DNA of 64,000 bases from Alphaproteobacteria bacterium (GCA_965218865.1 CBDCME010000078.1:22570-86569); one strand, 5' to 3'; counted from the stretch's first letter, positions 13,932-60,484 are shown. Program-made: numbers and translations. The notes: a model not told the origin generated them from the letters alone.

Positions 13932-13932
13932 C

Positions 13933-31340: not shown

Positions 31341-31384
31341 TAAGCCGTGACGGCATCAAGACTTGATCGATTGGAGACGAAACG

Positions 31385-33975: not shown

Positions 33976-34504
33976 CATTTGAAGGCGGCCCATTTGGTGG
34001 CGGCCTCGGGTCCGCTGCCGGTAACGGCGGGAAAATGGCTGCAGCCGGCCGCGGTGACGGCGGTGAAGCAGCTCAGGCCGTCGCTCACGACGATGCTTCC
34101 TGGCCGCATGGCGCGGCGCGACATTTTCTCGATCTCCGCCTTGCGAAAGCCTTTCACGCGCTTGAGCTTGAGCCGGTGGGGCCGGCCCTCGGCCGTGGTT
34201 TCCACGGCGGACACGAAGGGCGTCTTGCCGGGCGCGCCACGGCCCCGCCTCGCGCAGTGACGGGCGCCCCCCAGATAGGCGTCGTCGATCTCGATCCGCT
34301 TGCCCTCGCCGCCGCCCAGCGGCTTGTCTCCCTCGCGCTCCAGCATCACCTGCATCAGCTTGTGATGCATCTTCCACGCCGTATTGTAGCTGACCCCAAG
34401 CCGGCGCCCCAATTCGAGGCTGGAAATCCCTGTCTTCGACTGGCTGATCAGGTAGATGGCCTCGAACCACCATGTCGCTGGCTCGAGGCCGGTCACGGGC
34501 GTTA

Positions 34505-35618
34505 CTAATATCCCAAAATAATACCTGACATATTGATCGGACTGTGCTATACATGGTGCATGGAAGCGCGTGACTTTCGTGGCATTGGTCGGGCGGCGCA
34601 GGAGGAACTCCGGCGTCGGGCGATCGTGCTTGTCGAGCAGGGTGGATCGAGCCGGGCCGAGGCGGCCAGGGTTGTTGGCGTGCAGCGGCAGACGGTCAAC
34701 ATCTGGCTCAAGCGGTATCGCGAACGGGGCGAGGACGGCCTCCTGGATGGTCGTCGGGTTTCCGGACGCAAGGGCAAGGGGGCGCTGACCACCGAGGAGG
34801 GCCGGCAAGTCCGCCGCTGGATCGCCGACAAGACGCCCGATCAGCTCAAACTGCCGTTTGCATTGTGGACGTCCCGTGCGGTGCGCGAGTTGATCGAGCG
34901 CCGGTTGGGCAAGCGCCTTGGCCTGTCGACCGTCCAGCTCTACCTGAAGCGCTGGGGCATGACCCCGCAAAAGCCGCTGGCGCGCGCCAAACAACGCTCG
35001 CCCGCCGCCGTGGCCGCCTGGTTGGAGCGCGACTACCCGGCGATCGCCGGGCGCGCCAAGCGAGAGAGAGCCGTCGTCTACTGGGGCGACGAGACCGGCA
35101 TCTCCAACCAAGACCAGATCGGCCGCAGTTATGCCCCAAGAGGCCAGACGCCGGTGGTTGGCCGGACCGCCAAGAAGATCTCCAAGAGCATGATTTCGGC
35201 CGTCTCCAACCGCGCCCTGATGCGCTTCATGCTGTATGATGGGGCGCTTAACGTCGATCGCTTCATCATCTTCCTGCGGCGGCTGATCAAGGACGCAAAG
35301 CAGAAGGTGTTCCTGATCATAGATAACCTGAAGGTGCACCACGCCAAGTGGGTCAAGGCCTGGACTCTGAGCCATCGCCACGAGATCGAGCTGTTCTACC
35401 TCCCGGCCCCCGAGTGCAACCCGGACGAATACTTGAACAACGATGTCAAGCAGAAGTTGCGCCAAAAGCCGCAGCCCGGCACCAAGGACGAACTGGACAA
35501 GAATACCCGCGCCGTCTTGCGCGCAATTCAGCGTTCATCGGATCGAGTGCGCGGTTACTTCCGCCCCCACCCCGTCAAATACGCCGCCTGATCGTCAGGT
35601 ATCATATTAGGATATTAG
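34505..35618 (+). mobile_element. IS630-family element type b, copy 1 (1114 bp)
   Basis: TIRs CTAATATCCCAAAATAATACCTGAC and GTCAGGTATCATATTAGGATATTAG, flanked by TA at 34503-34504 and 35619-35620. Confidence 0.85.
34533..35591 (+). CDS. IS630-family transposase (single ORF)
   Basis: 352 aa with HTH and DDE_3 domains (...VVYWGDETGISNQD...IIDNLKVHHAK...YLPAPECNPDEYLNNDVK). Differs by one residue (R/C) from the copy at 53425-54483. Confidence 0.9.
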   Translation: MIGLCYTWCMEARDFRGIGRAAQEELRRRAIVLVEQGGSSRAEAARVVGVQRQTVNIWLKRYRERGEDGLLDGRRVSGRKGKGALTTEEGRQVRRWIADKTPDQLKLPFALWTSRAVRELIERRLGKRLGLSTVQLYLKRWGMTPQKPLARAKQRSPAAVAAWLERDYPAIAGRAKRERAVVYWGDETGISNQDQIGRSYAPRGQTPVVGRTAKKISKSMISAVSNRALMRFMLYDGALNVDRFIIFLRRLIKDAKQKVFLIIDNLKVHHAKWVKAWTLSHRHEIELFYLPAPECNPDEYLNNDVKQKLRQKPQPGTKDELDKNTRAVLRAIQRSSDRVRGYFRPHPVKYAA

Positions 35619-35793
35619 TAACTTTTTCAATGTGTTAGGTGAGGAAGCATTTCGGCATCGCGGTTGGTTGCCCCGGTGATGGCTAACTCCCCGCAGTTAC
35701 GGACGAGGAATTTCACGGTACGGTAGATGTCCTTGTTGCTCACAGCCGAGCATACCCGAAAGTTGGTGACGGAGTTTTCAGGAGGAACAGGGA

Positions 35794-36750
35794 TCAGCCG
35801 TCGGGGACGATCAGGGTTCCGGATTCGCCATTCAAGGCCCGGCCGATGTTGGGCGGGCTCGTGATCAGACCCTGTTTGCCGCCGTTTTCGAGGAAAGCGA
35901 TCAGGGCCTGGACCTTCGGTCCCATGCTACCCGCGGCGAAATGGCCTTCAGCCGTGTAGCGTTTCGCCTCGCTCACGCTGATCCGCTCGAGCCAGCGCTC
36001 ATTCGGCTGATTGAAGTTGATCGCCACCCGTTCGACTCCGGTCGACAACATGAACATCTCGGCCCCCACCTCCTGGGCCAGGAGACCGGAGGCGAAATCC
36101 TTGTCGATCACGGCCTCGACGCCTTGCAGATCGCCGTTATCATCGACGATCACCGGAATGCCACCGCCGCCGCAGGCGATGACCACGTAACCGGCCCGCG
36201 CCAGCAGAGAGATTTCCTCGACCTCGACGATCGCGCGCGGGAACGGTGAAGCGACTACGCGCCGCCAACCCCGACCGGCGTCCTCGCGAATCCGCCAGCC
36301 GTGCTTGCGGGCCCGCTCACGCGCGGTCGCCTCGTCCATGTGCGAACCAATGGGCTTGGTCGGATCGCGGAAGGCGGGATCGTCGCGATCGACCACCACC
36401 TGGGTGACCACGGCGATGGCGCGGCGCCCGATACCGCCGCGGCGGAAGGCGTTGTGAAGGGCACGTTGAAACATGTAGCCGATGGCACCTTGGGTATCGG
36501 CGCCGGCGTAGTCCATCGGCACCGGGGCGATCTCGTGGATCGACAATTCCGAGCGCCGGAGGATGAAGCCGACCTGGGGCCCATTGCCGTGAGTGAGGAT
36601 GACGTTCCAGCCGGCGGCGACCATCTCGGCGACGTACTCGGACGAGGTCGCCGCGGCCTGGTATTGGTCGGGGATCGATTCGTGGTTTTCGTCGACGATG
36701 AGCGAATTGCCCCCGACGGCGATGATCGCGATCCGCCCGGCGGCCGTCAT
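35794..36750 (-). CDS. arcC: carbamate kinase
   Basis: 318 aa: IAVGGNSL...THGNGPQVG...MDYAGADTQGAIGY...ACGGGGIPV...IDKDFASGLLA... Confidence 0.9.
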   Translation of the reverse strand: MTAAGRIAIIAVGGNSLIVDENHESIPDQYQAAATSSEYVAEMVAAGWNVILTHGNGPQVGFILRRSELSIHEIAPVPMDYAGADTQGAIGYMFQRALHNAFRRGGIGRRAIAVVTQVVVDRDDPAFRDPTKPIGSHMDEATARERARKHGWRIREDAGRGWRRVVASPFPRAIVEVEEISLLARAGYVVIACGGGGIPVIVDDNGDLQGVEAVIDKDFASGLLAQEVGAEMFMLSTGVERVAINFNQPNERWLERISVSEAKRYTAEGHFAAGSMGPKVQALIAFLENGGKQGLITSPPNIGRALNGESGTLIVPDG

Positions 36751-36757
36751 CGCGCGC

Positions 36758-38171
36758 TCAGGCCTCGGAGCCGAGGGCCGCGGCCAGGGCCGAGACGGCC
36801 TGGGTAAAACACGCCAGCGGGGCCCGGGTGATGCCAGCGCCGACCTGGCCGATCCCGGCCTCCCGGTGCGCGATACCGGTGTTGATGATCGGTTGGATTC
36901 CGGTATCGACGACCTTGCGCACGTCGATGGCCGTCGGTGTGCCGGCGAAGCCCAGCGCTGGCAAGGTCAAGGCGGGATTGGGTCCCTGGGTGATGCACAC
37001 CATCTCGCGCGTATTGGCGATCGCGTCGGCAGGGGTGCCGCCGACGAACTGGACGATCGCCGGGGCCGCCGCCATGGCGAAGCCCCCGACGCCGGCGGTC
37101 TCGGAAATGGCGCTATCGCCGAGGTCCGGAGCACAATCGGCGGCGGCGTATCCAGGAAAGAGAAGCCCCTTGATCACCGGCGCCCGAGCCGTGAACCACG
37201 TATCCCCGGTGCCACTGACGCGAATGCCGAATTCCACGCCGTTGCGCGTCATCGCCGTCACCAGACTGCTGTTCGCGACGCCGTGGGCGGCGTCTAGCAT
37301 GGCCTTGCAAGCGGCCATCGAAAGATTGAGAAAGAAGTGGTCGTTGGCAGCGATGAATTCGACCACCTCGGCGACGCTTTCCCGGGGCAGATCGGCGCGG
37401 AGCAGCGCCGGCAACGAGCGTTTCAACAACAGCGAGGAAGCCGCTGCGTTGCGGTTGTGAACCTCGTCACCCATGTGCAGCGCCTGGGCCAGCAGGGGCT
37501 TGATTTCCAGGCCGCCCAGCCCGGCGACGGCGCGGCCCAGGGCGGGTCCCAGGGTCGCCCCCATCCAACCCAGCCTGGCGATGACCTCGGCCCCATGGGC
37601 CCCAAACCGCAAGGCCTTGCCGAGGCCCTCGTTGAGGTTGCTGTAGGCGCGATTGCCGTGCGCCTGGTCCACGACCGACCACACCGGCATGGAGGGACTG
37701 ATGACGCCCGCCATGGGGCCGACAGCGCCGTGGTGATTGCAGGGTTCGAAGGCGATTTCGCCCCCCGCCGCCAGACGGCACGCGCCTTCGGCGTCGGCGG
37801 CCCAGCCCTCGTGGATGGCGGCGCCGATGATCGCCCCCCGCATAGGGCCGCACATGGCCTCCCAGGCGATCGGCGGACCGGCGTGAAAGATCGTGCGCTC
37901 CCCCATGCCCGGTAAAGCCTCGCGCGCAACTTCGACGCCTTCGAGCACCGGCCTGGCGGCCAGCAAACGCGCGAAGGCCTCAGCGTTCGCTGCCTCGATC
38001 GCGGGATGATTGACCAGGCGAGCCAATTTCATGCCCGACGCCCGGATCAGCGCCCCCAGGTGGACGCCAGTCAAGGCCGAGGACCTCGGCGCCGGCGGAC
38101 CGTGCCGCCTCGGCGAAGGCGGGTACACCGACGTTGATGATCCGCAATTTTTCCTCGAACAACGTGAGCAT
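36758..38171 (-). pseudogene. DUF1116 (YlbE-like) protein, apparent frameshift
   Basis: N-terminal MLTLFEEKLRIINVGVPAFAEAARSAGAEVLGLDWRPPGGADPG is in one frame. The remainder (...IFHAGPPIAWEAMCGPMRGAIIGAAIHEGWA...) is in another, with the shift near 38045-38055. Confidence 0.7.
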
Positions 38172-38200
38172 CGCGCCTTCCCCCGTTTCGAAAACGGCCC

Positions 38201-39714
38201 TCAGGCCGCCGCGAGGCGCAACGCCCGGGCGTTGCTGGGGGCCAACAAGACCCCGGCTCCTGCCGGGCGAGACCCTGGGGATCGTCCTCGGTGCCGCAAA
38301 CCGAAGCCACGAAGACGGGGCGGGTGCCCCCGTCCACCGCCCGGGCTGCGACGATGGAAAGAGCTGTAACGATTTCGGCCGCCGGATCGGAATGTGCCCC
38401 GTGTCCCAACACGACGTCGAACAGGATCACCGCCACTTCCCCGTCAGCGGCCTCCTGCAGAAGGCGTTCGTTACGCAGGCGGTGGTCGATCATGGGATGG
38501 GGCCGACCCTGGGTGAAGGCGTCGGCCCCGAAATCGACGACCGTGTGACCCCGGCTTCGCCAGATATTGGTGAGGCGGAATCGGTCGTCGAGGGGCGTCG
38601 GCGAATACACCGGTCCCAGGGCCTCGCTCAACATGTGGAGAGCCTCGAAACCGAAGGTCCCCCCGCCGAAGAGGCCGTGAACGTAGCGCTGGCCCGGCGC
38701 CAAGCACCCGGCGGCCGTGGAAATCTCCTCCGTCGCGGGACCTTCCGCGCTCGGCGGCGGCCTGTCTTCGGAGAGGGCGACAGCCGCCGCGGCCGCGTCC
38801 TCAAGGGTGCGGGCAGCGGTAACGCCCTCACGGACCAGGCTTTCGCCGGTGGCACCGATGAAATTCACCACCACGGGCTTGCCGGCCAGGGCGCCCTCCT
38901 CGATGACCTTCGCCGCCACCTCGGCCGCCGGTGGTTTGGAGATCAGGATGATGACGCGGGTGGCGGCGTCGGCCGCCAACGCAGCCAAGCCCTGCAACAT
39001 GGTGATGCCGCCGACGCGAGCATGAAGATCGCGACCGCCGGTTCCGATCGCCTGGGAAATCCCTTGGCCCCATCGGTCGACGAGACAAGTGACTTGCTGG
39101 AGTCCAGTTCCCGAGGCGGCGACCACCCCGATCTCGCCGCGTCGCACCCGGTTGGCGAAACCCAAGGGAATTCCGTTGATGATGGCGCTGTCGCAGTCCG
39201 GTCCCATGACCAGGAGATCGCGCTCACGGGCGTAGCGTTTGAGCATGATTTCGTCGTCGAGACCGACGTTGTCGCTGAACAGCATCGCGTTGAGTCCGAG
39301 GCGCACGGCCTTCAGCGCCTCGGCGGCGGCGTAGGTCCCGGGAGTCGAAATCACGGCCAAGTTCGCCGCCGCCAACTCCACTAGGCCCGATTCGATGCTG
39401 TGGGGCGCCGGGCTTCCCGAGACGGCGTCACCAGTCTTTTCGATGGGTTGCTGTTTCAAGGCACTTTCGGCCTCGTCCATCGCCGCCTCGAGGGCATCGC
39501 CCTGGCCTTGAACGACGACGACGAGGGAATTCGGCTCGGCCCCGACGTCACCGTCGAGGAGACCGGCGTCGCGGAGAAGCTCGAGGTTGCCCTCGGTGGC
39601 CATGATGGCCGAGGCTTCGCTGACGCCGGGCCGTTCGGCGAGGCGAGCCGAGAGCCGCATCAGAGATACCGAACCCCAGTAGCGATCGCGAAACAACCTA
39701 TGCCGCGTTTCCAT
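38201..39714 (-). pseudogene. fdrA: FdrA (succinyl-CoA-synthetase-alpha-like) protein, apparent frameshift near the 3-prime end
   Basis: METRHRLFRDRYWGSVSLMRLS... The CoA-ligase-like core is intact. At the C4/G4 run 38251-38254 the frame shifts; the expected tail ...VLLAPSNARALRLAAA-stop (38201) is in another frame. Confidence 0.75.
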
Positions 39715-39804
39715 CGATTCCCTACGCCAACCGTGCAACCGCCCCCCCGGCGAAGCGCAGCCCCGAGAGCGATGCCAAATCCGCCACGATCCCTCCTTAC
39801 CGCG

Positions 39805-40716
39805 TCACTCGCGCGAGAAATGGCGACCGATGCTGGCCGGCATCCGCGACGAACGGCCGAAGCCCGACAAGACCAGCAGTGAAACGAGATACGGCGTCAT
39901 CTGCACGATGTAGGAGCTGACCGGAAGCCCGTAGCCTTGGACCCGGAGTTGGAGCGCTTCGGCAGCGCCGAAGAGCAGACATGTCGCGATGACGCCGACA
40001 GGCGACCAGCGCGCGGCAATGACGGCGGCCAACGCGATGTAACCGCGCCCAGCGGTCATGTTGTCGGTAAACGAGCCGACCTGTTGAAGAGTCAGAACCG
40101 CGCCGCCCAGGCCGGCGATCATACCGCAAGCGATCACGGACGCAAACCGCACTCGAATGGGGTTTGCGCCCATTGCGTATGCGGCCTCTGGGTTCTCGCC
40201 GACCGACCGCAGGGTCAGCCCGGCCTGAGTACGGGTCAGCAATAGATAAATCGGGATCGTGAGAAGGAACGCAAAATAGGTGAGCGGTGGCTGATTGAAA
40301 AGCAGCGCGCCGATGATCGGCGTCTCGTCCAGGATCGGGATGGCGATCGGTTCTACGATCTCGACCCGGATCGCGCCCGAACCCGCGATCGCGCGCAGCA
40401 TGAAGCTGGTCAACCCGAGCGCTAGAATGTTTGAAGCGAGCGCCACCACGATATGATCCGCGCGAAAGACGATCGTCGCCGTTGCGATTACAACGCCGAG
40501 AGCGGCGCCGGCGAGTGCGGCGCCCGCCAGACCGAGCAATGCACTGTCGGTTCCGAAAGCGGCAAAAAGGCCGCCGGCCGCGCCGACGAGCATCATGCCC
40601 TCCAGACCGACCGCAAACACGCCGGCACGCTCCGATATGATCCCGCCGAGCGCCGCCAATAGCAGCGGCGTGGCGATGCGGATCGAAGCAGCGACGAATT
40701 CTATGGCGAGATCCAC
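39805..40716 (-). CDS. ABC transporter permease (BMP/sugar-type, BPD_transp_2)
   Basis: 303-aa polytopic ORF adjacent to a second permease and a duplicated ATPase. Confidence 0.8.
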   Translation of the reverse strand: MDLAIEFVAASIRIATPLLLAALGGIISERAGVFAVGLEGMMLVGAAGGLFAAFGTDSALLGLAGAALAGAALGVVIATATIVFRADHIVVALASNILALGLTSFMLRAIAGSGAIRVEIVEPIAIPILDETPIIGALLFNQPPLTYFAFLLTIPIYLLLTRTQAGLTLRSVGENPEAAYAMGANPIRVRFASVIACGMIAGLGGAVLTLQQVGSFTDNMTAGRGYIALAAVIAARWSPVGVIATCLLFGAAEALQLRVQGYGLPVSSYIVQMTPYLVSLLVLSGFGRSSRMPASIGRHFSRE

Positions 40717-40719
40717 GGA

Positions 40720-41823
40720 CTAATTCTCCTGTCGCCGCCGCGCCTGTTCGATCCCCATGGCCGACAGCACAAACAGAATTGTCAGACCTTGGATGACGAA
40801 GACGAGGGCAGAGTTCACGCCGGTCTCACGCTGCATCGACAACGCGCCCGCCTCGAGAAATCCGAAAAACAGGCTGGCCGGGATCGCGGCTAGAGGGCTC
40901 GTCCCCGCCAAAAGCGCGATCGCTAGCGCCTTGAAGCCGAAACCGGTCGAGAAACCCTCGATCAGCCTATAGTGGAACCCAAGCACCTCCAACGCGCCCG
41001 CAAGACCTGCGAGGCCGCCGGCTAGCAGCATAACCATCAAGACCGTGTGCTCGGGGGAGACCCCCGAATAGGTCGCCGCGGGGCGGCTTGCGCCGAGTAA
41101 CCGAATGCGAAACCCGAAGATGGTGCGGTTCAACACGAACTGTGCGGCCACGGCAGCCGCGACCGCGACAATGAAACCGACATGCACGCCACCGGGACGC
41201 AACGCTGGTAGCCACGCCTCGCGGGGAAAAAGCGGTGACTGAGGAAAGCCGGCGCCCGTTTCGCCCAGCGTGCCATGTAGGGCTTCGGCCACGATCAGAA
41301 TGGCGACGAAGTTCGACAACAGAGTAACCAGAATCTCATGAATCCGTCGCTTTAAATGGATCGCTGCAGCGAGCCCCGACCAGAGGGCACCGACGGCCGC
41401 GCCAACGGCCATGGCGAGAAGGATGAGCAAACCGCTCGGCGCCCCCGCGCCGATCGTCAATACCACCCAGGTTGCACCGAGGCCGCCAAGCGCGATCTGC
41501 CCTTCAGCGCCAAGGTTGATGATTTTTCCACGAAAGCAAAGAGCGATACCAACGGCGGTGAGCAAGTAGGGCGTCGTCTTGTTGAGACCCACCTCAATGT
41601 CATAGCTTGAGCCGAACGCGCCGCGCACCAGCGCCGCTGTTGCCGCGAAGGGATCGTCGCCAGTCGCCGCGATTAAAATCCCTGCGACCATCAATGCGGC
41701 CGCGACAGCCAAGACCGGGCGCAAATACGCCATTACGCGACCGATCTCGTGCCGCGTCGGTCGCCGCATCCGACCCCGCATCGTCTTTCCCATCGCCTTA
41801 AGAATGCCTGTGAACATTCGCAT
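40720..41823 (-). CDS. ABC transporter permease
   Basis: Polytopic ORF. The start is uncertain (several Met between 41823 and 41772) and overlaps or abuts the ATPase stop. Confidence 0.75.
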   Translation of the reverse strand: MRMFTGILKAMGKTMRGRMRRPTRHEIGRVMAYLRPVLAVAAALMVAGILIAATGDDPFAATAALVRGAFGSSYDIEVGLNKTTPYLLTAVGIALCFRGKIINLGAEGQIALGGLGATWVVLTIGAGAPSGLLILLAMAVGAAVGALWSGLAAAIHLKRRIHEILVTLLSNFVAILIVAEALHGTLGETGAGFPQSPLFPREAWLPALRPGGVHVGFIVAVAAAVAAQFVLNRTIFGFRIRLLGASRPAATYSGVSPEHTVLMVMLLAGGLAGLAGALEVLGFHYRLIEGFSTGFGFKALAIALLAGTSPLAAIPASLFFGFLEAGALSMQRETGVNSALVFVIQGLTILFVLSAMGIEQARRRQEN

Positions 41824-43378
41824 CCACCCCCTGAACAGAGATCGATGATTCGCCCGTGCGGTCGCCCGCCATGAGGCGCCCAAGGCGACTGGCGTCTAGA
41901 TGACCGCGCGGCGCATCTGAGACTAGGCAACCCGCGAACAAGACCCCGACGCGATCGCCCAAGGCAAGCACCTCCTCTAGTTCCGAAGAAATAAACACGA
42001 CGCCAGCGCCGGCGGCCCGAAGTTCGAGCAGCTGGTCCATAACGAACCGCGCCGCGCCCGGGTCGAGACCCCAAGTCGGCTGATGCGCAACGAGCACCCG
42101 GGGCTTACGACCAAGCTCCCGCCCAAGAACGATTTTCTGTTGGTTTCCGCCGGAAAGCTCATCGGCGCGCGCGTCGGGACCTGAGGTGCGGATGCGAAAT
42201 CCGGCGATCCGATCCTTCGCCGTGTGCTGGATTTGGCTGTGCCGCACCACACCAAAACGTGAGTACGGGGATCGGTCGACGTCGCGCATAACAAGGTTTT
42301 CCGCAACCGTCATCTCCTGTACGAGGCCCATTCGTGAGCGATCGGCGGGAACGTATGCGACACCCGCCTGGACGCGGCGCGCCACGGACCAACGCGTGAT
42401 ATCAGTCTGACATAGTAACACCCTTCCCCCAGTCACCGGCAAAAGCCCCGCAAGCGCGTGCGCCAGCTCTTTCTGCCCATTGCCGTCGACTCCCGCGATC
42501 GCTAGGATTTCGCCTTCCCGAAGCGCGAAGGTGATATCAGAGACGCCGCGCCGACCGGAACCCTCCTCCACACTCAACCCGTCGACGATTAATAGATCTC
42601 GGCCAGGTCTCCCGGCGGACGTCGCCTCGGGAATCGCCGTGGCGATATCGTCGCCGACAATCATGCGCCCCAATTCGTCGCGGTTGGTGCCGGCGGTCGA
42701 GACCGCAGCGGCGACAGCACCGGCGCGCAGCACGACGACCCGGTCGCACAACTCCAGCACCTCGCCGAGCTTATGAGAGATAAAGATGATCGATTTGCCG
42801 TCTTCGCGGATCCGTCGCAAGGTGTGCATCAAGGCGTCGACCTCGGGCGGGCTGAGGTTGGACGTGGGCTCATCCAGGACCAGCAGCTCTGCGCCGCGCA
42901 GGAGCGCTTTGACGATTTCAACCCGCTGGCGTCCGCCGAGGGACAAATCGCTGACTTGCGCATCCGGGTTTAGTTCGAGACCGTAATGCGCGCTCATTTC
43001 GCGGATACGGCCGGCAATCTCCGCGCGCCGCAACACCTGACCACCGGCTCCATTTGCCTCGTGCCACCGCAGCATGACGTTTTCAACCACGCTCATCGCC
43101 TCGATCAGCATGAAGTGCTGGTGGATCATGCCAACGCCGGCGGACATGACCTCGCGGGGCGATCGGCCTGTCAGATCACGCCCACGATAAATCACCTCGC
43201 CGGCGTCCGGTGCCAGGAGCCCGAACAATATCTTCATGAGCGTGCTCTTGCCCGAGCCGTTTTCGCCGAGAAGGCCGAGGATCGAGCCGCCCTCGACGCA
43301 AAGATCAATACGGCGGTTGGCGTGGACGCGGCCGAAGCGTTTATCGATCCCTCTCATGTCCAACAACGCTTCGGCCAT
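41798..43378 (-). CDS. ABC transporter ATP-binding protein (two fused ABC domains)
   Basis: Start taken at MAEALLDMRGIDKRF. Walker A GENGSGKST, signature LSLGGRQRVEI, Walker B LLVLDEPT, and a second LSGGNQQK. Confidence 0.85.
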   Translation of the reverse strand: MAEALLDMRGIDKRFGRVHANRRIDLCVEGGSILGLLGENGSGKSTLMKILFGLLAPDAGEVIYRGRDLTGRSPREVMSAGVGMIHQHFMLIEAMSVVENVMLRWHEANGAGGQVLRRAEIAGRIREMSAHYGLELNPDAQVSDLSLGGRQRVEIVKALLRGAELLVLDEPTSNLSPPEVDALMHTLRRIREDGKSIIFISHKLGEVLELCDRVVVLRAGAVAAAVSTAGTNRDELGRMIVGDDIATAIPEATSAGRPGRDLLIVDGLSVEEGSGRRGVSDITFALREGEILAIAGVDGNGQKELAHALAGLLPVTGGRVLLCQTDITRWSVARRVQAGVAYVPADRSRMGLVQEMTVAENLVMRDVDRSPYSRFGVVRHSQIQHTAKDRIAGFRIRTSGPDARADELSGGNQQKIVLGRELGRKPRVLVAHQPTWGLDPGAARFVMDQLLELRAAGAGVVFISSELEEVLALGDRVGVLFAGCLVSDAPRGHLDASRLGRLMAGDRTGESSISVQGVDANVHRHS

Positions 43379-43413
43379 CGATCGCCCCTTTCGCGGTCCG
43401 CCGTCAAGCCATT

Positions 43414-44454
43414 TCAAGTACCCGAGCGGGCGTCCTCTCTGGTCGGCGTCACGGTCAACCTGCCGTTCGTGAACTGCTCGATGACTGCCTCGACATCGGC
43501 CAGAATGTCTTTCGGGATCTCGGGATTGAACGCGACGTTCTCGGTGTAGCCGAAGGTGGCGCCGGTCACGGGCGCAGTGTCGAAGCCGAACTTCTTGAAA
43601 TCGCCGAATAGCTCGCCGGTTTTTGCTTCGGACGCCGCGGCCTCGTACACGGAGGCCCAATCGTCGACGGTATTGGTCAGGACGTACTTCGGCGCCAACG
43701 CCGTGTGGCCGAAAGACCTTCCCACCGCATAGACGCCCTTTTCCTTCGCCGCCTGAACGAGCCCGGCGTGGCCCGCATTCAGCATGCCGGTGATGATGTC
43801 GGCGCCATTGGCGATAATCGACAGCGCCGCTTCCTTCGCAGCGGCCGCGTCCTCCATATTGGCAAGGTAAATCACCTCAATCTGGGCGTCCGGGTTGGTC
43901 GCGAGCACACCCAAACGGAGCCCGCCGACAAAGTCGACAATCGTCGGCAGCCCTTCAAGGCCGGCGACCAAGCCGACTTTGCCCGATTTGCTCAATTTCG
44001 CCGCGAGCACGCCGAGGGCGTACGAAAAATGCGCCCGATTGATCTCGACGGAGCGCATGTTCGGCGGCACGCCCTTCGCCCCCGATCCAACGATAAATTG
44101 GACGTCGGAAAACTCGGGTGCGACGCGTTCGGCCGCGGAGACGAAGCGTCCGGAATGGCCGATCACGATGTCGAATCCGCGTCGCGCATAGTCCCGCATG
44201 GCCGCAACATGGTCGGCCGACTGGACATTTTCAGAGTACGCGACCTTGTATCCAAGGCCTTCTATCTTTTTCAAACCGGCGTAACCGGAGGCGTTCCAGC
44301 TTTGGTCGTTGATGCTCCCCGGAAGGAGCATCGCGGCCTCGTCCGCCCACACACTTGGGGTGGCCGCAATGCCGATAACGGCGGCAAGAGCGAACCCGAC
44401 TCGCAGACGACGGCCAACCGTTCTACAAATTCGCTTAATCATGGTGTTGATCAT
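43414..44454 (-). CDS. BMP-family ABC substrate-binding protein
   Basis: Start taken at MINTMIKR... with signal peptide AAVIGIAATPSVWA. ...INDQSWNASGYAGLKK...VIGHSG... is typical of the PnrA/Med family. Confidence 0.8.
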   Translation of the reverse strand: MINTMIKRICRTVGRRLRVGFALAAVIGIAATPSVWADEAAMLLPGSINDQSWNASGYAGLKKIEGLGYKVAYSENVQSADHVAAMRDYARRGFDIVIGHSGRFVSAAERVAPEFSDVQFIVGSGAKGVPPNMRSVEINRAHFSYALGVLAAKLSKSGKVGLVAGLEGLPTIVDFVGGLRLGVLATNPDAQIEVIYLANMEDAAAAKEAALSIIANGADIITGMLNAGHAGLVQAAKEKGVYAVGRSFGHTALAPKYVLTNTVDDWASVYEAAASEAKTGELFGDFKKFGFDTAPVTGATFGYTENVAFNPEIPKDILADVEAVIEQFTNGRLTVTPTREDARSGT

Positions 44455-44752
44455 TTGAGAGATCTCCAATTTGAGTGGATAAATGATCCACGGTTTCGCG
44501 TATTCATTAATTTCGGGCGATCGGAAACCCAGTTCGATGTCAGAAGATTCATGCATAAACCCCATCATCCCCGGAAAGAAGTCTTGGCCCCGGCGGAATA
44601 TCTTCCGAATCGACGTTGCTTTCTGCTTGATCCCGGGTGATCGGATGAACTTTGTTCATGCAACCTCCCAATAAACATGCCACCGAGATCGTGACGACCA
44701 AGAACATCCTCATACCGGGCCTCTCTCCCTCATTCCATGGCTAGAGCACGGT

Positions 44753-45101
44753 TCAAAACTTAATTCGAGCGCCAAAATGCATGGCAAATATATCCCTGAA
44801 GTCGCGATCATCTTCGTCGTACCTGTGATACCGCCCTCCGATATATCCCTCGGTCGCGATCTTGTCGATATTCTGAACAAGGAATAGCCCAAACGAGTTA
44901 CTGTCGGAGCCGTCCTCGGTGAAATTCTTGCCGTCGTAATAGGCAATGGCAGTCGCGGTTTTTCCGAACATCTGTTTTAAGGGTTTGGATCTTCTTTTGC
45001 ATTTGCAGCATTTCGCGTTCTAACTTGTTGATCATCGCCTGCGTTTCAGCGGCGGTTTGCGCTTTCGCAGTTGACCCAAACGCAGTGAGTGCGACAACCA
45101 A
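44753..45101 (-). pseudogene. porin remnant (tentative)
   Basis: A signal-peptide-like / coiled-coil N-terminal piece and a C-terminal piece ending ...HFGARIKF (terminal Phe typical of beta-barrels) lie in different frames. Far too short for a porin. Confidence 0.3.
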
Positions 45102-45288
45102 GACCGTAGTTCAGAGCAAATGGTAATAAGAAATTCTACTACACGAGTCGATTCGGAATGCCATGACGACCCCCTTTGTTTGTGCCCCCATCTTCTCGGC
45201 CCCCCCAAGATTCAAATCTTCTCGGCCCCCCAACGATTCAAATTACGTGTTGAGAATTCTGCGCCTCTTTTTAAGACCACCGGGCGGC

Positions 45289-46413
45289 TCATCGTTCCAG
45301 GCTCGCGATGATCGAGATTGGGCCACCACCATCCGGGCCCTGGTGTTCGGCGCCACCTGAAACGTAGATCGCCGTGCGCCCAATCGCAGCGGAAACCACG
45401 CCACCAACCAGCGCCCGGCCATGACGCGTCGCGTGAATATCGCTATCGTCCCACATCGTATGGCGCAGGCCCCGGATACGCCCATCGCGCGACGGCTCGG
45501 CCTTGACAAGAACTGCGAGAATGCGTTCAGCGTCCGTCGCGTTGAGTTGTTCGCCCGGCTCGAACCCGAGTTCGCGCAGAATTTTGCGGATCGCGGCAAT
45601 GTCTATGGGATCTTTCATCACGCCGTGTGCGATTACCGTGCCGCCGCTCCACGCGGAACTGTTTCCGAAGACGATGATTTCGTTGCGCATCATTTCGATA
45701 CCGGCAGACGCGCTGGCCCGTCCTGACCAGAGCGCGATATCGCGGCACACGACATCGTCCGACAAATCATCCGCGTCGATCTCGCCGAGAGCCAACGCCA
45801 CGCCGAGCGACGAAGCACCGCGCGAATAGCCCATCGACTGGTAGGTATCGTCGGTGACCACATCCCCACCGCGACCACGCGCCTCGGCGACCCGCTCCAT
45901 GGTCAAGAGCGGACACTTGATCTGGACCCAATGAACGTCGCTCGGGTCGGTGATTTCCGCGTCGTCCATTGCTTGGCGGACGGCCCGCGCAGTCTCCTGC
46001 ACTTGCGCCATGCGACCGAGCTCCTCGGGTGCGAGATTCGGCGTGAACGTGCTGCAGACCGCCAGCCGCTTCGGCGCCTCGGTCGCAACCGACATTGGTG
46101 CGTTCTCGGCTTGTCGAATGGCGACAACGAGAAAATGAGGCGATAATGCCCCCTCGGTGCCGCCGGACATCACCATCGCGATGCGATCCTCGACCGCCGC
46201 AGGCGTGACGCCCATCCTCGCGGCCAGCTTGATTTTCAGCATGTCGGACGCGTAGCCGCGCGTGAAATCGTTGACGCAGCCGTTTCCTTCGGTCTTACCG
46301 AGGATCGCTACAATCTCATCCACCGCAACCATGCCCTGCTCGATCAGTTGATCGACACCTGATGTGTCTCCGGGATGCTTCATGGGCGCACAAGCCACGA
46401 TACATTGACGCAT
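45289..46413 (-). CDS. ring-opening amidohydrolase of the cyanuric acid hydrolase / barbiturase family
   Basis: 374 aa: ...HPGDTSGVDQLIEQGMVAVDEIVAILGKTEGNGCVNDFTRGYA...MVMSGGTEGALSPH... Matches the AtzD/TrzD/barbiturase N-terminal signature as I recall it. Confidence 0.8.
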   Translation of the reverse strand: MRQCIVACAPMKHPGDTSGVDQLIEQGMVAVDEIVAILGKTEGNGCVNDFTRGYASDMLKIKLAARMGVTPAAVEDRIAMVMSGGTEGALSPHFLVVAIRQAENAPMSVATEAPKRLAVCSTFTPNLAPEELGRMAQVQETARAVRQAMDDAEITDPSDVHWVQIKCPLLTMERVAEARGRGGDVVTDDTYQSMGYSRGASSLGVALALGEIDADDLSDDVVCRDIALWSGRASASAGIEMMRNEIIVFGNSSAWSGGTVIAHGVMKDPIDIAAIRKILRELGFEPGEQLNATDAERILAVLVKAEPSRDGRIRGLRHTMWDDSDIHATRHGRALVGGVVSAAIGRTAIYVSGGAEHQGPDGGGPISIIASLER

Positions 46414-46537
46414 GTTCGGCCTCTCGGATTTGGTTTTGGTAGGCGCGCTCGGCTTACACCCAAGTTCGCACCATCAATGTCTTATATTTGAAACGGGCGT
46501 GAGGTCTTTGAAAAGCACCAATTTTCGTCCATACTGA

Positions 46538-46550
46538 TCTAATTATTAGA
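46538..46550. promoter_or_regulatory. 13-bp perfect palindrome TCTAATTATTAGA (T-N11-A) in the divergent promoter region
   Basis: Lies 20 bp upstream of the LysR-family gene, between it and the amidohydrolase gene. Fits the generic LTTR T-N11-A box. Confidence 0.3.
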
Positions 46551-46570
46551 GCGAATAAGGTGAAGGCGGC

Positions 46571-47479
46571 ATGAAGCCTCTCCTTCCAGGTCAAGCGCGG
46601 GCCTTCCAGTACGTCGAACAGATAGCGCGGCATGGCTCGATCCGACGCGCGGCCGACGTGCTTGGCGTGGCGTCGTCGGCCGTCAACCGGATGGTCCGTG
46701 AATATGAGACGGTGCTCGGCATCGCACTTTTCGAGAGATTGCCGCGTGGCGTGCGTCTCACCTCAGCCGGGGAACTCCTCATCGACCACATTCGGCGTAC
46801 ATCGCGGGATTTCGAGAAGGTTCGCAGGCAGATCGAAAATATACAAGGCTTGGAACGAGGGCACGTCACGATTGCGACGATTGAGGCCACCGCCTCAACG
46901 CTTCTCGCCGCACAGATCGCGCGGTTTCATCAGGCGCATCAAATGGTGACGTTCCATGTTCAGGTTCTCGGCTCGCCAGGTGTTGTCAACGCCGTGCTGG
47001 CGGATCGCTGCGAACTGGGTCTGGCGCTTAATCCACCCAAAACGCAACGGTTTCGGACGCTCGCGAGCGTCCACTATGTTTTACACGCTTTCGTTGTGTC
47101 CAGTCATCCTCTGGCGTCCCGCCAAAGGATTCAGCTGAGCGATTGCTTAGGCTTTCCCGTTGCGCTGGGCGATCACTCTCTTGGCGGCCGACGCCTCTTG
47201 GACGAAGCTCTCGCAGAAGCCGAGATAACACTGTCAAACTTCCTAACGACAAATTCAGTAGAACTGATGCAATCCGTGGTGGAACGCACAGATGGCATAT
47301 GTTTTCAGGTGATGGCACTGGGCGGCACCTGGACCAACAAGTCATTGAAAGCGATTCCTGTTTTTGATCGGAAGCTCCCGGAAGTCGAGCTCGCACTGGG
47401 CGCGAATCATCTTCGATCGCTTTCCATCGCCGCCAGCGCCTTCGCCAACGATCTCTGCTCCACGCTTGGTAAACAGTAG
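46571..47479 (+). CDS. LysR-family transcriptional regulator
   Basis: 302 aa with N-terminal HTH (FQYVEQIARHGSIRRAADVLGVASSAVNRMVREYE) and a LysR substrate-binding domain. Divergent from the catabolic cluster. Confidence 0.85.
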   Translation: MKPLLPGQARAFQYVEQIARHGSIRRAADVLGVASSAVNRMVREYETVLGIALFERLPRGVRLTSAGELLIDHIRRTSRDFEKVRRQIENIQGLERGHVTIATIEATASTLLAAQIARFHQAHQMVTFHVQVLGSPGVVNAVLADRCELGLALNPPKTQRFRTLASVHYVLHAFVVSSHPLASRQRIQLSDCLGFPVALGDHSLGGRRLLDEALAEAEITLSNFLTTNSVELMQSVVERTDGICFQVMALGGTWTNKSLKAIPVFDRKLPEVELALGANHLRSLSIAASAFANDLCSTLGKQ

Positions 47480-47811
47480 GAGAAGGAATAGCGCTGGCAT
47501 TCTCAAGTTAACGTGACCTGTTCATAGTCAGTTGACGCAATCCCCATTTAATGCGGGTAGCCTCGCCATCCATATTGGAGATGCCGGGCAACGTCGGAGA
47601 TAATGTTTGCTCCAAAGTGCGGATCAACCAAAGCTGGGTGAGTTCCGATCCCATCTCGCCAAGGATAAAATCGTCGACCGGCACGTCCGCGACGTTCTTC
47701 GGGTTTTTCTTGTCCCGCTTGATCTCCTCCCTGATCTCCCTCTTAAACGACCTTCGTGCCGTGGCAAATTGCTTGACAATATCGTTTGCATCCGCGCGTG
47801 CGATTGGCAGA

Positions 47812-48004
47812 ACCCTCGGCGACGAACCGGCTGCGTGATGCCGCCCTGACGGGGTTCAGGCTTCGAAAATGCCGAGATCAAAGAGGTTGCCGGAATGAAC
47901 TTGGTCCATGACGTTCATGGTAAGGTCGGGCCGGTTCCGTCAATGTTCACGCCGTTCACGCTCCGGCGGGTTCGACGCCCAAAATTGCCCCTGCGTCAGG
48001 TACG
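47812..48004 (+). repeat. 193-bp direct repeat, left copy
   Basis: Matches 60092-60284 with 4 mismatches by eye. Confidence 0.9.
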
Positions 48005-48084
48005 GCTAGCGGTTAACTTGACAGTGCCAGGGGCGGCGCCGCGAGGCGCGCCCCTATCCCAATTTCTGGGTGGAACGCCGACAT

Positions 48085-48237
48085 TCAGCGGGGTGATTTA
48101 GCCATCCATTCCGCCAATTTCGACCACCTTCGAGTCTCGACCTTCCCTTTGACGGCCATCCCGACAGCCTTCTTTTGGCCGACCAAGACAACCAGCTTCC
48201 TGGCCCTGGTGATGCCGGTATACCCAGCCCATGGTCT
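48085..48237 (-). pseudogene. C-terminal fragment of a RecD2/TraA-like SF1 helicase
   Basis: Translates to YTGITRARKLVVLVGQKKAVGMAVKGKVETRRWSKLAEWMAKSPR-stop. No upstream homology. Confidence 0.5.
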
Positions 48238-48573
48238 CCCCTTAATATGAGGCGGGTTTTGTCAATGTGGTTTTTTATTGGACTGCATCACGGGGGGTGG
48301 ATGGTGGTGGAGGGCGGTGAGGATGCGGGTCGATCCAAGGCTGAGCCCCGCGTGCCGAATGCGCGATCGCGCATAACCTTATATCCGGTCGCACCGCTCG
48401 GGGTGCGGAACCAAAATCCCTCGTGCACGGGCGAGGACGCCGGGGCTCCAAGGGGATGGGACCTTTCTGTGAAAGCGGCGTCTTGCAGCCACGGGGAGAC
48501 ACGGTCACACATCCACCTTGGATTTCTCGGGCTCGTCGCGGTTGCGCCGGCCCTGGTTTTTGGTTTTTTTCCG

Positions 48574-49410
48574 TCAAACCTTGAGGACGGCGCCGGTGGG
48601 GACCAACCCGGTCTCCAGATAGCGCCACAGCGCCACCAGGAGCTTGTGCGCCAAGGCAACAATCATGATCCGCTTGAGGCGGCCCTTGGCGCCGCCCACG
48701 CGCTCGCGGAACCATTGGCTGAGCGCGCTGTCGGGTTGGTAGCGCAGCCATAGCCAAGCAAGCTCGATCATCGTCGTGCGCGCCCGCCGGTTGCCAGCCT
48801 TGGAGATGCCCTGGTCGCGGGTCACGGCGCCGCTGTTGTACGGGCTCGACGTCAACCCGACATAACTGCCGAGCTGGCGCCGGTTGCCGTAAGTCCGATA
48901 GAACACCTCGCTGGCCAGGACGCTGGCGATCTCGGGCCCGATGCTTCTGAGCCGGACCAGAAGCTGCATCTTGTCCCGGCCCTCGGAGACCGTCGTTGGC
49001 TCGAACAGCGCGTTGCGCTCGACCTCGCCGATCATGATTTGCACCAGGGCGAGGCGCTCGAGCTGGCGGCGAATCTCGGCATCGAGCCTGGGCGCCAGCA
49101 CGCGCCCGTCACCGGTTCGCAGCTCCGCCAGGCGGGCGACGGCGTCGGCGCGCCGCGGCTGGAAACCGTAGATCCCCTGGCCTGCCAGCAGCGCCTTGAT
49201 GCGGTTGACGTGACGGGTACGCTCCTTGACCAGCTCTTGGCGCTCGCGGTGCAGGCGTTTGAAGTCCTCCTCGGCGAACGACGGCACCCGCACCACCGCG
49301 AACACGTGACGCTCGCCGCGCGCGTACGCCATCAGCCCGCGCAGCATACCCTCGGCGTCGATGCAGTCGCTCTTGGCGCGGCGCGCCCGGCGGTCGACCA
49401 GCAGGCTCTG
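48574..49410 (-). pseudogene. IS110-family transposase, 5-prime truncated
   Basis: ...LLVDRRARRAKSDCIDAEGML...RSIGPEIASVLASEVFY...ISKAGNRRARTTMIELAW... The N-terminal catalytic domain is missing. The first ~48 codons of the listed ORF are antisense to an IS5 fragment. Confidence 0.75.
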
Positions 49411-49413
49411 TGA

Positions 49414-49587
49414 ACGCTTCACGTCAAAGGCCGCGACGGCGACAAGATCAACGCCATCCTCGCCGGCGCCGGCTACAACTACCGCCTTGTCCTCAAATGG
49501 CTGAGGCGTTTGTTTGTCCAAATCCTGGCCGCGCTCCTCAGCGACATCTCGCACCCCACCGCAAACCCAATCGCCGCTTCAGCTTGA
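49414..49587 (+). pseudogene. IS5-family transposase C-terminal fragment
   Basis: Translates to ...VKGRDGDKINAILAGAGYNYRLVLKWLRRLFVQILAALL..., followed by a probable IS end ...GGGTTCTTCACGGACGACTAC and TTA. Confidence 0.55.
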
Positions 49588-49616
49588 AATCAGGGTTCTT
49601 CACGGACGACTACTTA

Positions 49617-50784: not shown

Positions 50785-51150
50785 TAAATAGGGTATCGGG
50801 CCCGCGCCACCAACGCAGTGAGAGCCGAAAACACGTTGGCGACGCAGGCTATCGGTGGGTATGGAATGTCGCTTCTTGGCTAGACTCGGCCGTAGGGGGC
50901 CGCGTTTGGTCACGGCCGCTTTTGTCCTAAGCAGCCGTTCGAGCCGCGTACGCCCGCTTAAAACCGGGAGGCGGAACAAGGTCGTCTCGTCTCCTCGTCG
51001 CGAACTCACCGTCGGCTCCCCGTCGCGACAGATGTAAAGCGACTGATCTCCCGCTCCGCAGCGGAAGTCCCTGTCGAATCGATTCGTAGCCAGGGCCACG
51101 GAGCGGCGTTAGATTCTCACCAGAGTCAGTTGCCTTGGTCTGGGTGGAAC

Positions 51151-52050: not shown

Positions 52051-52105
52051 GCTGAACTTGAGGCCTCTGTCTTACAGAAGGATCCCAAGAAGAATCCCTC
52101 AAAAT

Positions 52106-52414
52106 TCAATCCAGCGCCTCCCGCGCCTTCCTCAAATAATCCGGATGATGATGCCCATACAGCTCCGTTGTCCGCTCATGATTGTGGCCTAAAAAGCCAC
52201 CAATCTCCCATAGCGGAACACCCCGCTGCGCCATCCACGTCCCAGCGGTATGACGCAACGTGTGCGGGGTCACATCTTTCAGTCCCGCACGCCTACGCGC
52301 CGTCACGAACGACCGTTTGATGTCGCCAACCCGTTGACCATCGCGGTGCAACACGTACCCCATCGGACTGCCGCGCTCATGCGCTTTGAGCAGAAACCAC
52401 TTAAGTCGACGCGG
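52106..52414 (-). pseudogene. tyrosine recombinase (phage integrase) C-terminal fragment
   Basis: ...GLKDVTPHTLRHTAGTWMAQRGVPLWEIGGFLGHNHERTTELYGHHHP (HxLRH ... GH ... Y catalytic tail), fused in frame to the truncated ATPase ORF upstream. Confidence 0.75.
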
Positions 52415-54511: not shown

Positions 54512-54640
54512 TAACTTCGGGTCGATGGGAACGAGTTTCCTCAAATTTTCTTCGGTGTCGCGATTGGTCATATGGATTTGGCACAATGACGAAGATCGGA
54601 TCGCTGTCCGGTTCCATCATGTCCTGTGTCCCGTGAAAAG

Positions 54641-60407: not shown

Positions 60408-60484
<77 letters not shown>

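Follow-up and report, generated by a model that had tools for sequence, protein, structure and literature searches.

What use could a gene cluster for opening the ring of cyanuric acid make of a module known for the phosphorolytic cleavage of oxalurate? The question is raised by a 64,000-nucleotide stretch of alphaproteobacterial DNA (GCA_965218865.1, CBDCME010000078.1:22570-86569), which sits within the 3.14-Mb long-read metagenome contig ctg836580_37x_l (ENA ERZ25067264) and is called the window throughout, at its full length. Between positions 35794 and 47479 it carries a LysR-family regulator gene and, transcribed on the minus strand from 46413 to 35794, atzD for a ring-opening amidohydrolase, four genes for a BMP-type ABC importer, allF, allG and a carbamate kinase gene. 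In Escherichia coli, the genes fdrA, ylbE, ylbF and ybcF have been called allF, allG, allH and allK since 2022-2024, AllK being the catabolic carbamate kinase that makes adenosine triphosphate (ATP) (PMC9843812; PMC11326118). AllFGH is the oxamic transcarbamylase, which interconverts oxalurate plus phosphate (Pi) and carbamoyl phosphate plus oxamate and which in E. coli requires AllH (PMC11326118). An earlier note on this DNA had tied FdrA, YlbE and carbamate kinase to oxalurate cleavage, and through the E. coli work on AllFGH and AllK this premise is now established biochemistry. The answer proposed here, to which we give about an even chance, is that an AllFG(H)-type carbamoyltransferase would phosphorolyze the ring-opened carboxybiuret, or else allophanate or biuret, to carbamoyl phosphate, from which carbamate kinase would make ATP.

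All nine genes named in the earlier note are present, with exact coordinates and strands, as judged from open reading frames (ORFs) and Pfam and NCBIfam profiles. The cluster reads as follows:

46571-47479, plus strand: LysR-family regulator gene, divergent from atzD (PF00126 and PF03466)
46414-46570, no strand: 157-bp divergent intergenic region between lysR and atzD, presumed promoter and operator (from ORF coordinates)
45289-46413, minus strand: atzD, cyanuric acid amidohydrolase (ring-opening), intact (PF09663, 481 bits; NF052395, 535.7 bits)
44455-45288, no strand: 834-bp spacer between atzD and the importer, of lower guanine-plus-cytosine (GC) content, with small ORFs only (sequence reading)
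43414-44454, minus strand: BMP/PnrA-family substrate-binding protein (PF02608, 149 bits)
41798-43378, minus strand: ABC importer ATPase with two ABC domains (PF00005 twice; limits from the source-contig gene call)
40720-41817, minus strand: ABC importer permease 1 (PF02653; gene call)
39805-40716, minus strand: ABC importer permease 2 (PF02653; gene call)
38201-39714, minus strand: allF (fdrA-like), disrupted (NF004760, 435.8 bits against a cut-off of 433)
36758-38171, minus strand: allG (DUF1116/YlbE-like), with a +1 frameshift (PF06545, 317 bits; the Pfam name for DUF1116 is now 'AllG')
35794-36750, minus strand: allK-like catabolic carbamate kinase gene, intact (TIGR00746, 361.2 bits against 358.25; NF009007, 382.1 against 266)

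The importer, the carbamate kinase (318 residues, the size of its homologs) and the LysR regulator look intact. On these gene identities, the cluster is best read as a LysR-controlled operon for cyanuric acid uptake and ring opening, to which an AllF-AllG-carbamate kinase module has been appended in the same direction. Chance is a most improbable source of this gene order, since unrelated genomes have the same set of genes.

The earlier note had assigned the ring-opening enzyme to the AtzD/barbiturase family, with pyrimidines such as barbiturate among its candidate substrates. The family assignment stands, while a pyrimidine substrate is not favored: solved structures of cyanuric acid hydrolases match the protein with 368-416 bits, against 277 bits for the barbiturase structure 5HWE. 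The protein also exceeds two curated equivalog cut-offs (NF052395, 535.7 against 360; TIGR02714, 481.5 against 153). In the case of the Azorhizobium caulinodans enzyme, the active site is built from the Ser-Lys dyads K40/S79, K156/S226 and K285/S333 and the substrate-binding residues R52, R188 and R314 (PMC4051656). Alignment finds all nine residues kept in the window's AtzD (K40/S83, K166/S236 and K304/S352; R52, R198 and R333), so that the catalytic dyads on which the earlier note had made its idea depend are in place. The predicted activity is the hydrolysis of cyanuric acid to 1-carboxybiuret.

The company kept by relatives of the module was surveyed across GTDB, with each species represented by one genome, which gave at least 575 AllG relatives; the closest 80 (66-73% identity) were taken with up to 10 kb on each side. 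Their loci were annotated by tblastn with a reference panel, the E. coli all region being the positive control, together with ORF clustering and Pfam and NCBIfam profiles, and the ORFs were called with weighting by GC content at third codon positions. Where the full 10 kb was available on both sides, 42 of 43 loci contain at least one of AtzD, a TrtA-like enzyme, BiuH, AtzF or a stand-alone allophanate-hydrolase C-domain, and carbamate kinase adjoins in 71 of the 80. The allantoin-pathway proteins AllA, AllB, AllC and AllE, all sought with the same positive control, occur in none of the 80 loci, and AllD is represented by a single similar sequence. These neighborhoods place the module in a widespread AllFG(H)K clade set in cyanuric acid, triuret and biuret clusters and not in allantoin clusters.

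Apart from the AtzD types treated below, three arrangements recur. The Nitrospira order is GntR-AllH-(methyltransferase)-AllF-AllG-AllK-Bmp-permease-permease-BiuH-ATPase-TrtA-like, followed by AtzF or a stand-alone allophanate-hydrolase C-domain. Its first isochorismatase-family protein is BiuH (NF050097, 411 bits against a cut-off of 370; 405 bits with the Rhizobium leguminosarum BiuH structure), and the second is TrtA-like (298 bits with the TrtA structure 6XIX against 196 with BiuH). Alphaproteobacteria, Chloroflexota and others have (AtzF)-TrtA-like-528-residue membrane protein-AllH-AllF-AllG-AllK, the sole isochorismatase of this type leaning toward TrtA (267 against 245 bits). Burkholderiales have GntR-xanthine/uracil-type permease-AtzF, divergent from AllF-AllG-AllK. 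In the last group (L025, L037, L049, L067 and similar loci), the flanks of the divergent AtzF and AllF-G-K genes hold a thiamine pyrophosphate enzyme, a family III coenzyme A (CoA)-transferase, an acyl-CoA synthetase-like protein, TctC receptors and the xanthine/uracil-type permease; a link to oxalate or oxamate handling is possible there and would favor oxalurate as the substrate of that subgroup. No recurrent TrtB/AtzH-like gene was detected in the 80 loci when a single sequence served as query and 137 small neighboring ORFs were compared with Pfam, a screen of limited sensitivity; L034, checked for mutual exclusion with TrtB/AtzH, has a SnoaL-like gene.

Several neighbors recur beside these enzymes. 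A stand-alone allophanate-hydrolase C-terminal domain of about 130 residues (PF21986; for example L018:18335-18733 and L096:13247-13636) follows the TrtA-like or the kinase gene where the amidase domain is absent, in 16 of the 80 loci and in an E. coli cassette described below. In 22 loci, a polytopic membrane protein of about 528 residues separates the TrtA-like gene from AllH (for example L052:5686-7272), and one of 411-444 residues adjoins AtzD in L056, L068 and a plasmid cassette (L068:6841-8175; L095:5313-6548). Neither membrane protein family has a significant Pfam match, and both are probably unrecognized transporters for triuret, biuret or cyanurate.

AtzD itself lies within a few kilobases of allF-allG in 7 of the 80 loci, which come from Eremiobacterota, Alpha- and Betaproteobacteria and Rokubacteria, that is, from at least four groups at phylum or class level:

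L034, Baltobacteraceae: AllF-AllG-AllH-AtzD
L056, Hyphomicrobiaceae: AtzD and a 444-residue membrane protein, divergent from AllH-AllF-AllG-AllK-Bmp importer
L068, Casimicrobiaceae: GntR-Bmp importer, AtzD and AllF-AllG-AllK, without AllH; genes intact, and nearly the content of the window
L081, Rokubacteria: AtzD beside AllFG
L069:7167-8249, L080:7126-8235 and L084:4915-6009, betaproteobacterial: variant AtzD directly upstream of AllF-AllG

The AtzD proteins of L034, L056, L068 and L081, which pass the cyanuric acid hydrolase equivalog with all nine residues in place, group in one subclade with 67-72% mutual identity. The variants of L069, L080 and L084 carry R188N and R314K, thus differing in two of the three substrate-binding arginines, and accompany AllF-AllG without an adjacent carbamate kinase; these enzymes may open a different ring. 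That they are barbiturases feeding ureidomalonate to AllFG is a possible but unsupported idea; they still score over the cyanuric acid hydrolase cut-off, yet have the two substitutions. Neither the AtzD-linked AllFG loci nor the window contain an isochorismatase.

Outside the census, a protein search of PLSDB with the window's AllG matched 175 plasmids and led to two enterobacterial cassettes. Type A, represented by L095 on Citrobacter freundii pE51_002 (NZ_CP042536:106345-116645), is a 10.3-kb unit bracketed by the insertion sequence (IS) IS26, with the order membrane protein-AtzD-NCS2 permease-AllH-AllF-AllG-carbamate kinase-LysR. Its membrane protein (MEM411) is 35% identical to the one beside AtzD in L056 and L068, and its AtzD, which reaches 581 bits with the cyanuric acid hydrolase equivalog, keeps the nine residues; identity to the window is 53-54% for AtzD and 63% for AllG. 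At least 80% of the 10.3 kb recurs, with no less than 97% identity, on 47 conjugative or mobilizable plasmids from nine genera, many of them from patients, hospital showers and drains, and no copy of the cassette turned up among 5426 complete E. coli genomes. Although no gene downstream of AtzD in it codes for a hydrolase, the cassette has spread in one piece; that chlorinated isocyanurate disinfectants release cyanuric acid and so select for it is speculation only. The adjacency of AtzD and allFG, on whose conservation the earlier note had staked its proposal, is therefore found in 7 of 80 loci and on these 47 plasmids, and intact orthologous clusters with AllH exist in L056, L034, L081 and L095.

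Type B, represented by L096 on pAPEC-O2-211A-ColV (NZ_CP030791:72560-80860), has the order TrtA-like cysteine hydrolase-AllH-AllF-AllG-carbamate kinase-stand-alone AH_C domain (the allophanate-hydrolase C-domain)-CodB-like permease-LysR. It occurs in 1556 of 5426 complete E. coli genomes (29%), mostly on the chromosome (1502 places), and on 81 PLSDB plasmids, and has been listed as region 'GR29' of extraintestinal pathogenic E. coli, with a guess at pyrimidine nitrogen acquisition (PMC12928451, 2026). Triuret, which arises from uric acid oxidation, has been reported in human urine (PMC7948467), and urinary triuret might matter for urinary and avian E. coli with type B. The two types share orthologs (AllF 65%, AllG 79%, AllK 71% and LysR 66% identical) and differ in that AtzD stands in one and a TrtA-like enzyme in the other. 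A further trace is present on the atrazine plasmid pTC1 of Paenarthrobacter aurescens TC1 (L097, CP000475:227243-228692), where atzB and atzC flank a truncated allG, 57-63% identical to the window's AllG clade, and a carbamate kinase gene that bears the annotation 'carbamoyl phosphate synthetase-like'.

In the two enterobacterial cassettes, AtzD and a TrtA-like enzyme replace each other among orthologous genes, which bears on the substrate. AtzD, acting on cyanuric acid, and TrtA, acting on triuret, are the two enzymes known to make 1-carboxybiuret (H2N-CO-NH-CO-NH-COO-), which decarboxylates spontaneously with a half-life of about 20 min (PMC7948467). The swap thus points to their shared product and not to oxalurate. 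Oxalurate (H2N-CO-NH-CO-COO-) is, like 1-carboxybiuret, an anionic N-acylurea, and the module could instead be an ordinary oxamic transcarbamylase acting on it, placed beside cyanurate, triuret and biuret genes because breakdown products of purines and uric acid are scavenged together under common regulation. This account has real points in its favor, in that oxalurate is the family's only biochemically proven substrate (PMC11326118), allFGHK beside biuH/trtA has been published as a separate oxalurate pathway (PMC12625717), and the AllG proteins of the window and of E. coli share 48% identity along the full length; co-scavenging is also conceivable, as uric acid oxidation gives both triuret and cyanuric acid (PMC7948467). 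We nevertheless consider it unlikely. The oxalurate-making enzymes AllE, AllC and AllB are missing from all 80 loci, the IS26 cassette contains only AtzD, AllHFGK, permeases and LysR, at least some host species, such as E. coli, possess a chromosomal allFGHK already, and the Nitrospira gene string that holds allFGK has biuH and trtA placed among the importer genes. Oxalurate as substrate would leave both the minimal AtzD cassette and the missing source of oxalurate unexplained.

The reaction and its substrate are read from gene context. Taken together, the swap, the constant carbamate kinase, the lack of oxalurate-forming enzymes and the bare type A cassette argue that the clade acts on carboxybiuret or a direct successor. 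AtzD would first open cyanuric acid to 1-carboxybiuret, which is established chemistry for its family. AllFG(H) would then move the terminal carbamoyl group of 1-carboxybiuret to phosphate, yielding carbamoyl phosphate and allophanate, a step modeled on the E. coli conversion of oxalurate and Pi to carbamoyl phosphate and oxamate; the successors allophanate or biuret may be additional or alternative substrates. Carbamate kinase would finally convert carbamoyl phosphate and adenosine diphosphate (ADP) to ATP and carbamate, the latter decaying to NH3 and CO2. Phosphorolysis would in this way replace the hydrolases AtzEG/AtzH/AtzF or TrtB/BiuH/AtzF, free nitrogen without urease and conserve energy.

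Among the candidate substrates we infer a ranking in which 1-carboxybiuret, giving carbamoyl phosphate and allophanate, comes first, because it fits the clusters that have only AtzD or only TrtA, the frequent and tightly linked AtzF as a consumer of the product and the absence of trtB beside allFGHK; comammox clusters have allFGHK without trtB, and clusters of ammonia-oxidizing bacteria have trtB (PMC12625717). Allophanate, giving carbamoyl phosphate and carbamate, would come second and fits clusters with a biuret-active hydrolase, and biuret, giving carbamoyl phosphate and urea, third. Somewhat short of an even chance is the broader possibility that AllFG(H) proteins are general N-acylurea phosphorylases, which together with AtzD or TrtA would mineralize cyanuric acid or triuret with a yield of up to two ATP and no need of urease, biuret hydrolase or allophanate hydrolase; the second ATP would come from a possible repeat of the reaction, from allophanate to carbamoyl phosphate and carbamate. 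The earlier note knew of no described phosphorolytic route for a ring-opened ureide. Full-text searches returned no publication in which AllFGH or carbamate kinase is connected with cyanuric acid, allophanate or carboxybiuret; the only related one, a 2025 paper on nitrifiers, notes the co-location (PMC12625717). By this search result, known enzyme families would here be joined in an undescribed pathway combination.

Another account keeps the gene association and changes the chemistry. AllFG-like proteins might perform an acyl-CoA- or ATP-dependent step, or serve as a decarboxylase or chaperone for the unstable carboxybiuret, with carbamate kinase present for another purpose. FdrA has a succinyl-CoA-synthetase-like fold and AllF carries CoA-binding and CoA-ligase domains (PF02629 and PF00549), the AllFGH mechanism is unsettled (PMC11326118), and the three variant AtzD loci lack an adjoining kinase, all of which would suit such a role. 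Carbamate kinase, however, adjoins in the 71 loci counted above and in both enterobacterial cassettes, and the only activity demonstrated for the family is carbamoyl transfer to and from phosphate (PMC11326118); other chemistry is therefore very unlikely.

The copy of the module in the window is damaged. allF lacks 16 nucleotides between bases 38258 and 38257, which DNA alignment to L025, L050 and L067 shows as one clean gap; among the homologs listed, about 70 of 76 read through this stretch, where the spacing between 'CGT' and 'AGV' is a constant 16 residues. The deletion puts the conserved C-terminal 'AGVLLAPSNARALRLAAA' helix out of frame and leaves an Arg-rich tail in its place. The match to NF004760 covers profile positions 10-467 only, and the protein is 60% identical to the AllF of L010 over residues 1-484. 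allG has one extra A in the run at 38027-38029, which splits the first 47 or so residues from a core that is intact (424 residues from the ATG at 38032); intact AllG homologs have 468-473 residues and 70-75% identity to the window's, the closest relative, P0122, reaching 87%. A 16-nucleotide deletion is untypical of consensus errors, and the single-base change in allG may be either real or an error. The single frameshifts that the earlier note had seen in fdrA and in the DUF1116 gene are both real in the assembly.

Partner genes are also missing. The absence of DUF2877 (ylbF), that is, AllH, holds for the whole 64 kb, as searched by tblastn (E<=10) and with an AllH hidden Markov model that detects AllH in 51 of the 80 related loci; the suggestion that it might lie past the IS block at 32.4-35.6 kb finds no support in the window by either search. 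The known downstream partners of AtzD or barbiturase were likewise rightly called absent, the isochorismatases BiuH and TrtA, the amidases AtzE and AtzF, AtzG and AtzH giving no match in the window (tblastn, E<=10). Oxalurate-producing allantoin genes (allB, allC, allE and allD) do not occur in the window either. With the 16-nucleotide deletion in allF, the frameshift in allG and no allH, this AllFG copy is probably non-functional, and since allF and allG are disrupted the pathway is probably not running in the organism. The module looks recently inactivated, within an IS-bracketed island whose nearest elements are these:

34501-35620, no strand: IS630-family element directly downstream of allK, its transposase with DDE_3 and HTH domains
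53396-54515, no strand: inverted second copy of that element, 99.6% identical over 1120 bp
48574-49554, minus strand: IS110-family transposase gene on the lysR side of the cluster (PF01548 and PF02371)
49605-50787, minus strand: 1.17-kb IS630-family element on the lysR side, one of five copies (repeat comparison)

The inverted IS630-family pair encloses 35621-53395, which is the whole cluster, and this segment with its two copies may be a composite transposon. The five copies of the 1.17-kb IS630-family element are about 99% identical (7047-8220, 11742-12911, 21358-22531, 30163-31344 and 49605-50787), and further transposase genes in the window belong to the IS110, IS1595, DDE_Tnp_1 and Mutator families.

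These surroundings invite the view that the junction is an IS-driven accident with allF and allG dead, that the working unit is LysR-AtzD-BMP importer, and that hydrolases encoded at other places of the 3.14-Mb contig deal with the ring-opened product as biuret or allophanate. The lesions, the lack of allH in 64 kb, the inverted copies around the cluster and the several other IS families agree with this, and so do the nearest AtzD relatives that have the same importer type without allFG (L008 and L092). Against it stand operon-like gaps on one strand, about 90 bp between permease and allF, 29 bp between allF and allG and 7 bp between allG and the start of the kinase gene, which makes an operon with a catabolic carbamate kinase. 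L068, moreover, combines near-identical content with intact genes, and independent AtzD-allFG linkages elsewhere make a chance assembly of these partners unlikely. We hold an accidental junction to be rather improbable, and it concerns present function in one genome, which is compatible with phosphorolysis for the cluster type. A dead local module and a recent junction do not weaken the general association, as intact examples abound.

The relatives of the window's AtzD deserve a closer description. The nearest named ones, at 59-61% identity, come from Ferrovibrio, Roseococcus, Siccirubricoccus, Roseomonas and Rhodospirillales. A metagenome scan with AtzD returned only three loci, none with allFG, and spot checks of the two closest relatives found classical or importer-only contexts. 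In L092 (10001-18321), three AtzD paralogs with 65%, 46% and 44% identity to the window's surround a BMP-type importer; AtzF, AllA-like and AllE-like genes lie nearby on that contig, which has no allFG.

A number of observations weigh against the phosphorolysis of carboxybiuret or its successors and should be read with it. Oxamate and oxalurate are the only AllFGH substrates shown biochemically, the abstract and Discussion of PMC11326118 reporting none besides oxamate and carbamoyl phosphate, and the catalytic mechanism is itself unsettled (PMC11326118). The window's AtzD falls in a separate subclade, with 51-53% identity to the other AllFG-linked AtzDs, and its closest relatives stand in classical atzDGEF or AtzD-importer contexts without allFG (L005, L008 and L092). 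The AllH that E. coli needs (PMC11326118) is missing within 10 kb from about 29 of the 80 loci as well as from the window, where allF and allG are disrupted and the AtzD-allFG junction could be recent in view of the many IS elements in the region. Nitrospira accounts for about 35 of the 80 loci, which are hence not phylogenetically independent. Many clusters also have AtzF, BiuH or both, that is, a full hydrolytic route alongside the module, and L034 adds GatC-like and amidase genes and a urea carboxylase to its SnoaL-like gene. The stand-alone AH_C domain (PF21986), finally, has no explained place in the proposed scheme.

If the proposal is true, its consequences reach beyond this locus. The known fates of 1-carboxybiuret, hydrolysis by AtzEG or decarboxylation to biuret, are both purely hydrolytic overall; a phosphorolytic third route would add substrate-level ATP formation to the degradation of s-triazines, triuret and biuret, with nitrogen freed without urease. 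It would widen the substrate range of the AllFGH transcarbamylase, a three-subunit family defined only in 2024, and would join into one pathway the clusters of comammox Nitrospira and ammonia-oxidizing archaea that are now read as two unrelated ones. It would also assign a function to the accessory operon that 29% of complete E. coli genomes (about 1550) carry and explain an IS26-mobilized cassette that spreads in hospital Enterobacterales on conjugative plasmids of clinical strains. Taken by itself the window is of modest significance, its copy being one in decay within an IS-rich island.

The importer of the window forms a complete BMP/PnrA-type set in one operon, with a PF02608 binding protein, a double ABC ATPase and two PF02653 permeases. 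The same four-gene importer adjoins AtzD in L008 and L092 and BiuH/TrtA in Nitrospira, and the window's binding protein is 52% identical to the one beside the three atzD paralogs of L092. Characterized members of this importer type carry nucleosides; the neighbors suggest cyanuric acid, biuret or triuret as a putative substrate here. The top NCBIfam match of the LysR regulator is CynR-like and below the cut-off, and an identical AtzD is found on four contigs, each with the same LysR-AtzD pair. Around atzD (44001-48000) the GC content is about 0.565-0.57 in 2-kb composition windows, against about 60% overall. An Rfam search of the spacer between atzD and the importer, which is the same in L003, returned no family match, riboswitch or other RNA. 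Megablast of the 12-kb region against plasmids gave no match.

Elsewhere in the window (8613-17511 and 27483-32302), the IS copies are interspersed with genes for copper and redox stress, including two multicopper oxidases, a CusF/PCuAC protein, an outer-membrane efflux protein and DsbD/ScsC-like proteins. A P-type ATPase ORF in this copper region ends beside an IS copy; by coincidence, a copper-type P-type ATPase also stands upstream of the Nitrospira allHFGK clusters. Close to where the IS-rich region ends, a tRNA gene on the minus strand (60411-60484) may mark a site of island integration.

Several known systems invite comparison. Like E. coli AllFGHK, the window has AllF (39% identity), AllG (48% over 414 residues) and a carbamate kinase in the order F-G-(H)-K, and the proposed logic would be the same, from an N-carbamoyl compound and Pi through carbamoyl phosphate to ATP. 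Unlike it, the window has AtzD and a BMP importer, lacks the allantoin genes and AllH, has damaged allF and allG, and would act on a different substrate. A segment of about 47 residues, 'MLTLFEEKLRIINVG...DWRPPGGADP' (38025-38171), forms the AllG N-terminus in the window's clade and shows a weak match (E = 0.06) to residues 509-542 of E. coli AllF (L091), which has 555 residues against 516-521 for AllF in the window's clade; by this alignment, the F/G junction segment seems to have passed from one subunit to the other.

With the atzDGEHF operon of Pseudomonas sp. ADP (PMC6219798) and the metagenomic locus L005 (AtzD 66% identical), the window shares AtzD in first place and a LysR regulator. 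The Pseudomonas operon hydrolyzes carboxybiuret by AtzEG, AtzH and AtzF without making ATP, whereas the window lacks these genes. The biuret route of Rhizobium leguminosarum and Herbaspirillum sp. BH-1, which runs from AtzD or TrtA through (TrtB) to BiuH and AtzF (PMC7948467), has the same entry enzymes and the same unstable 1-carboxybiuret, and BiuH, TrtA-like proteins and AtzF are frequent neighbors in the AllFGK clade. It differs in that the window and the AtzD-linked AllFG loci have no isochorismatase-family hydrolase and that a TrtB/AtzH-like gene does not recur.

The biuH/trtA-allFGHK-bmpA-nupABC clusters of comammox Nitrospira and ammonia-oxidizing archaea (PMC12625717) share with the window the AllG clade (70-73%), the BMP importer type and carbamate kinase. 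They have BiuH/TrtA and no AtzD, their authors having seen no atzD in nitrifier metagenome-assembled genomes, and their allFGHK was read in 2025 as a separate 'oxalurate catabolism' pathway (PMC12625717). The so far undescribed enterobacterial cassettes, finally, differ from the window in their transporters, which are NCS2 or CodB-like permeases plus an unassigned membrane protein instead of a BMP ABC system, and resemble it in combining AllF, AllG, carbamate kinase and LysR, with AtzD in type A, here as intact genes accompanied by AllH.

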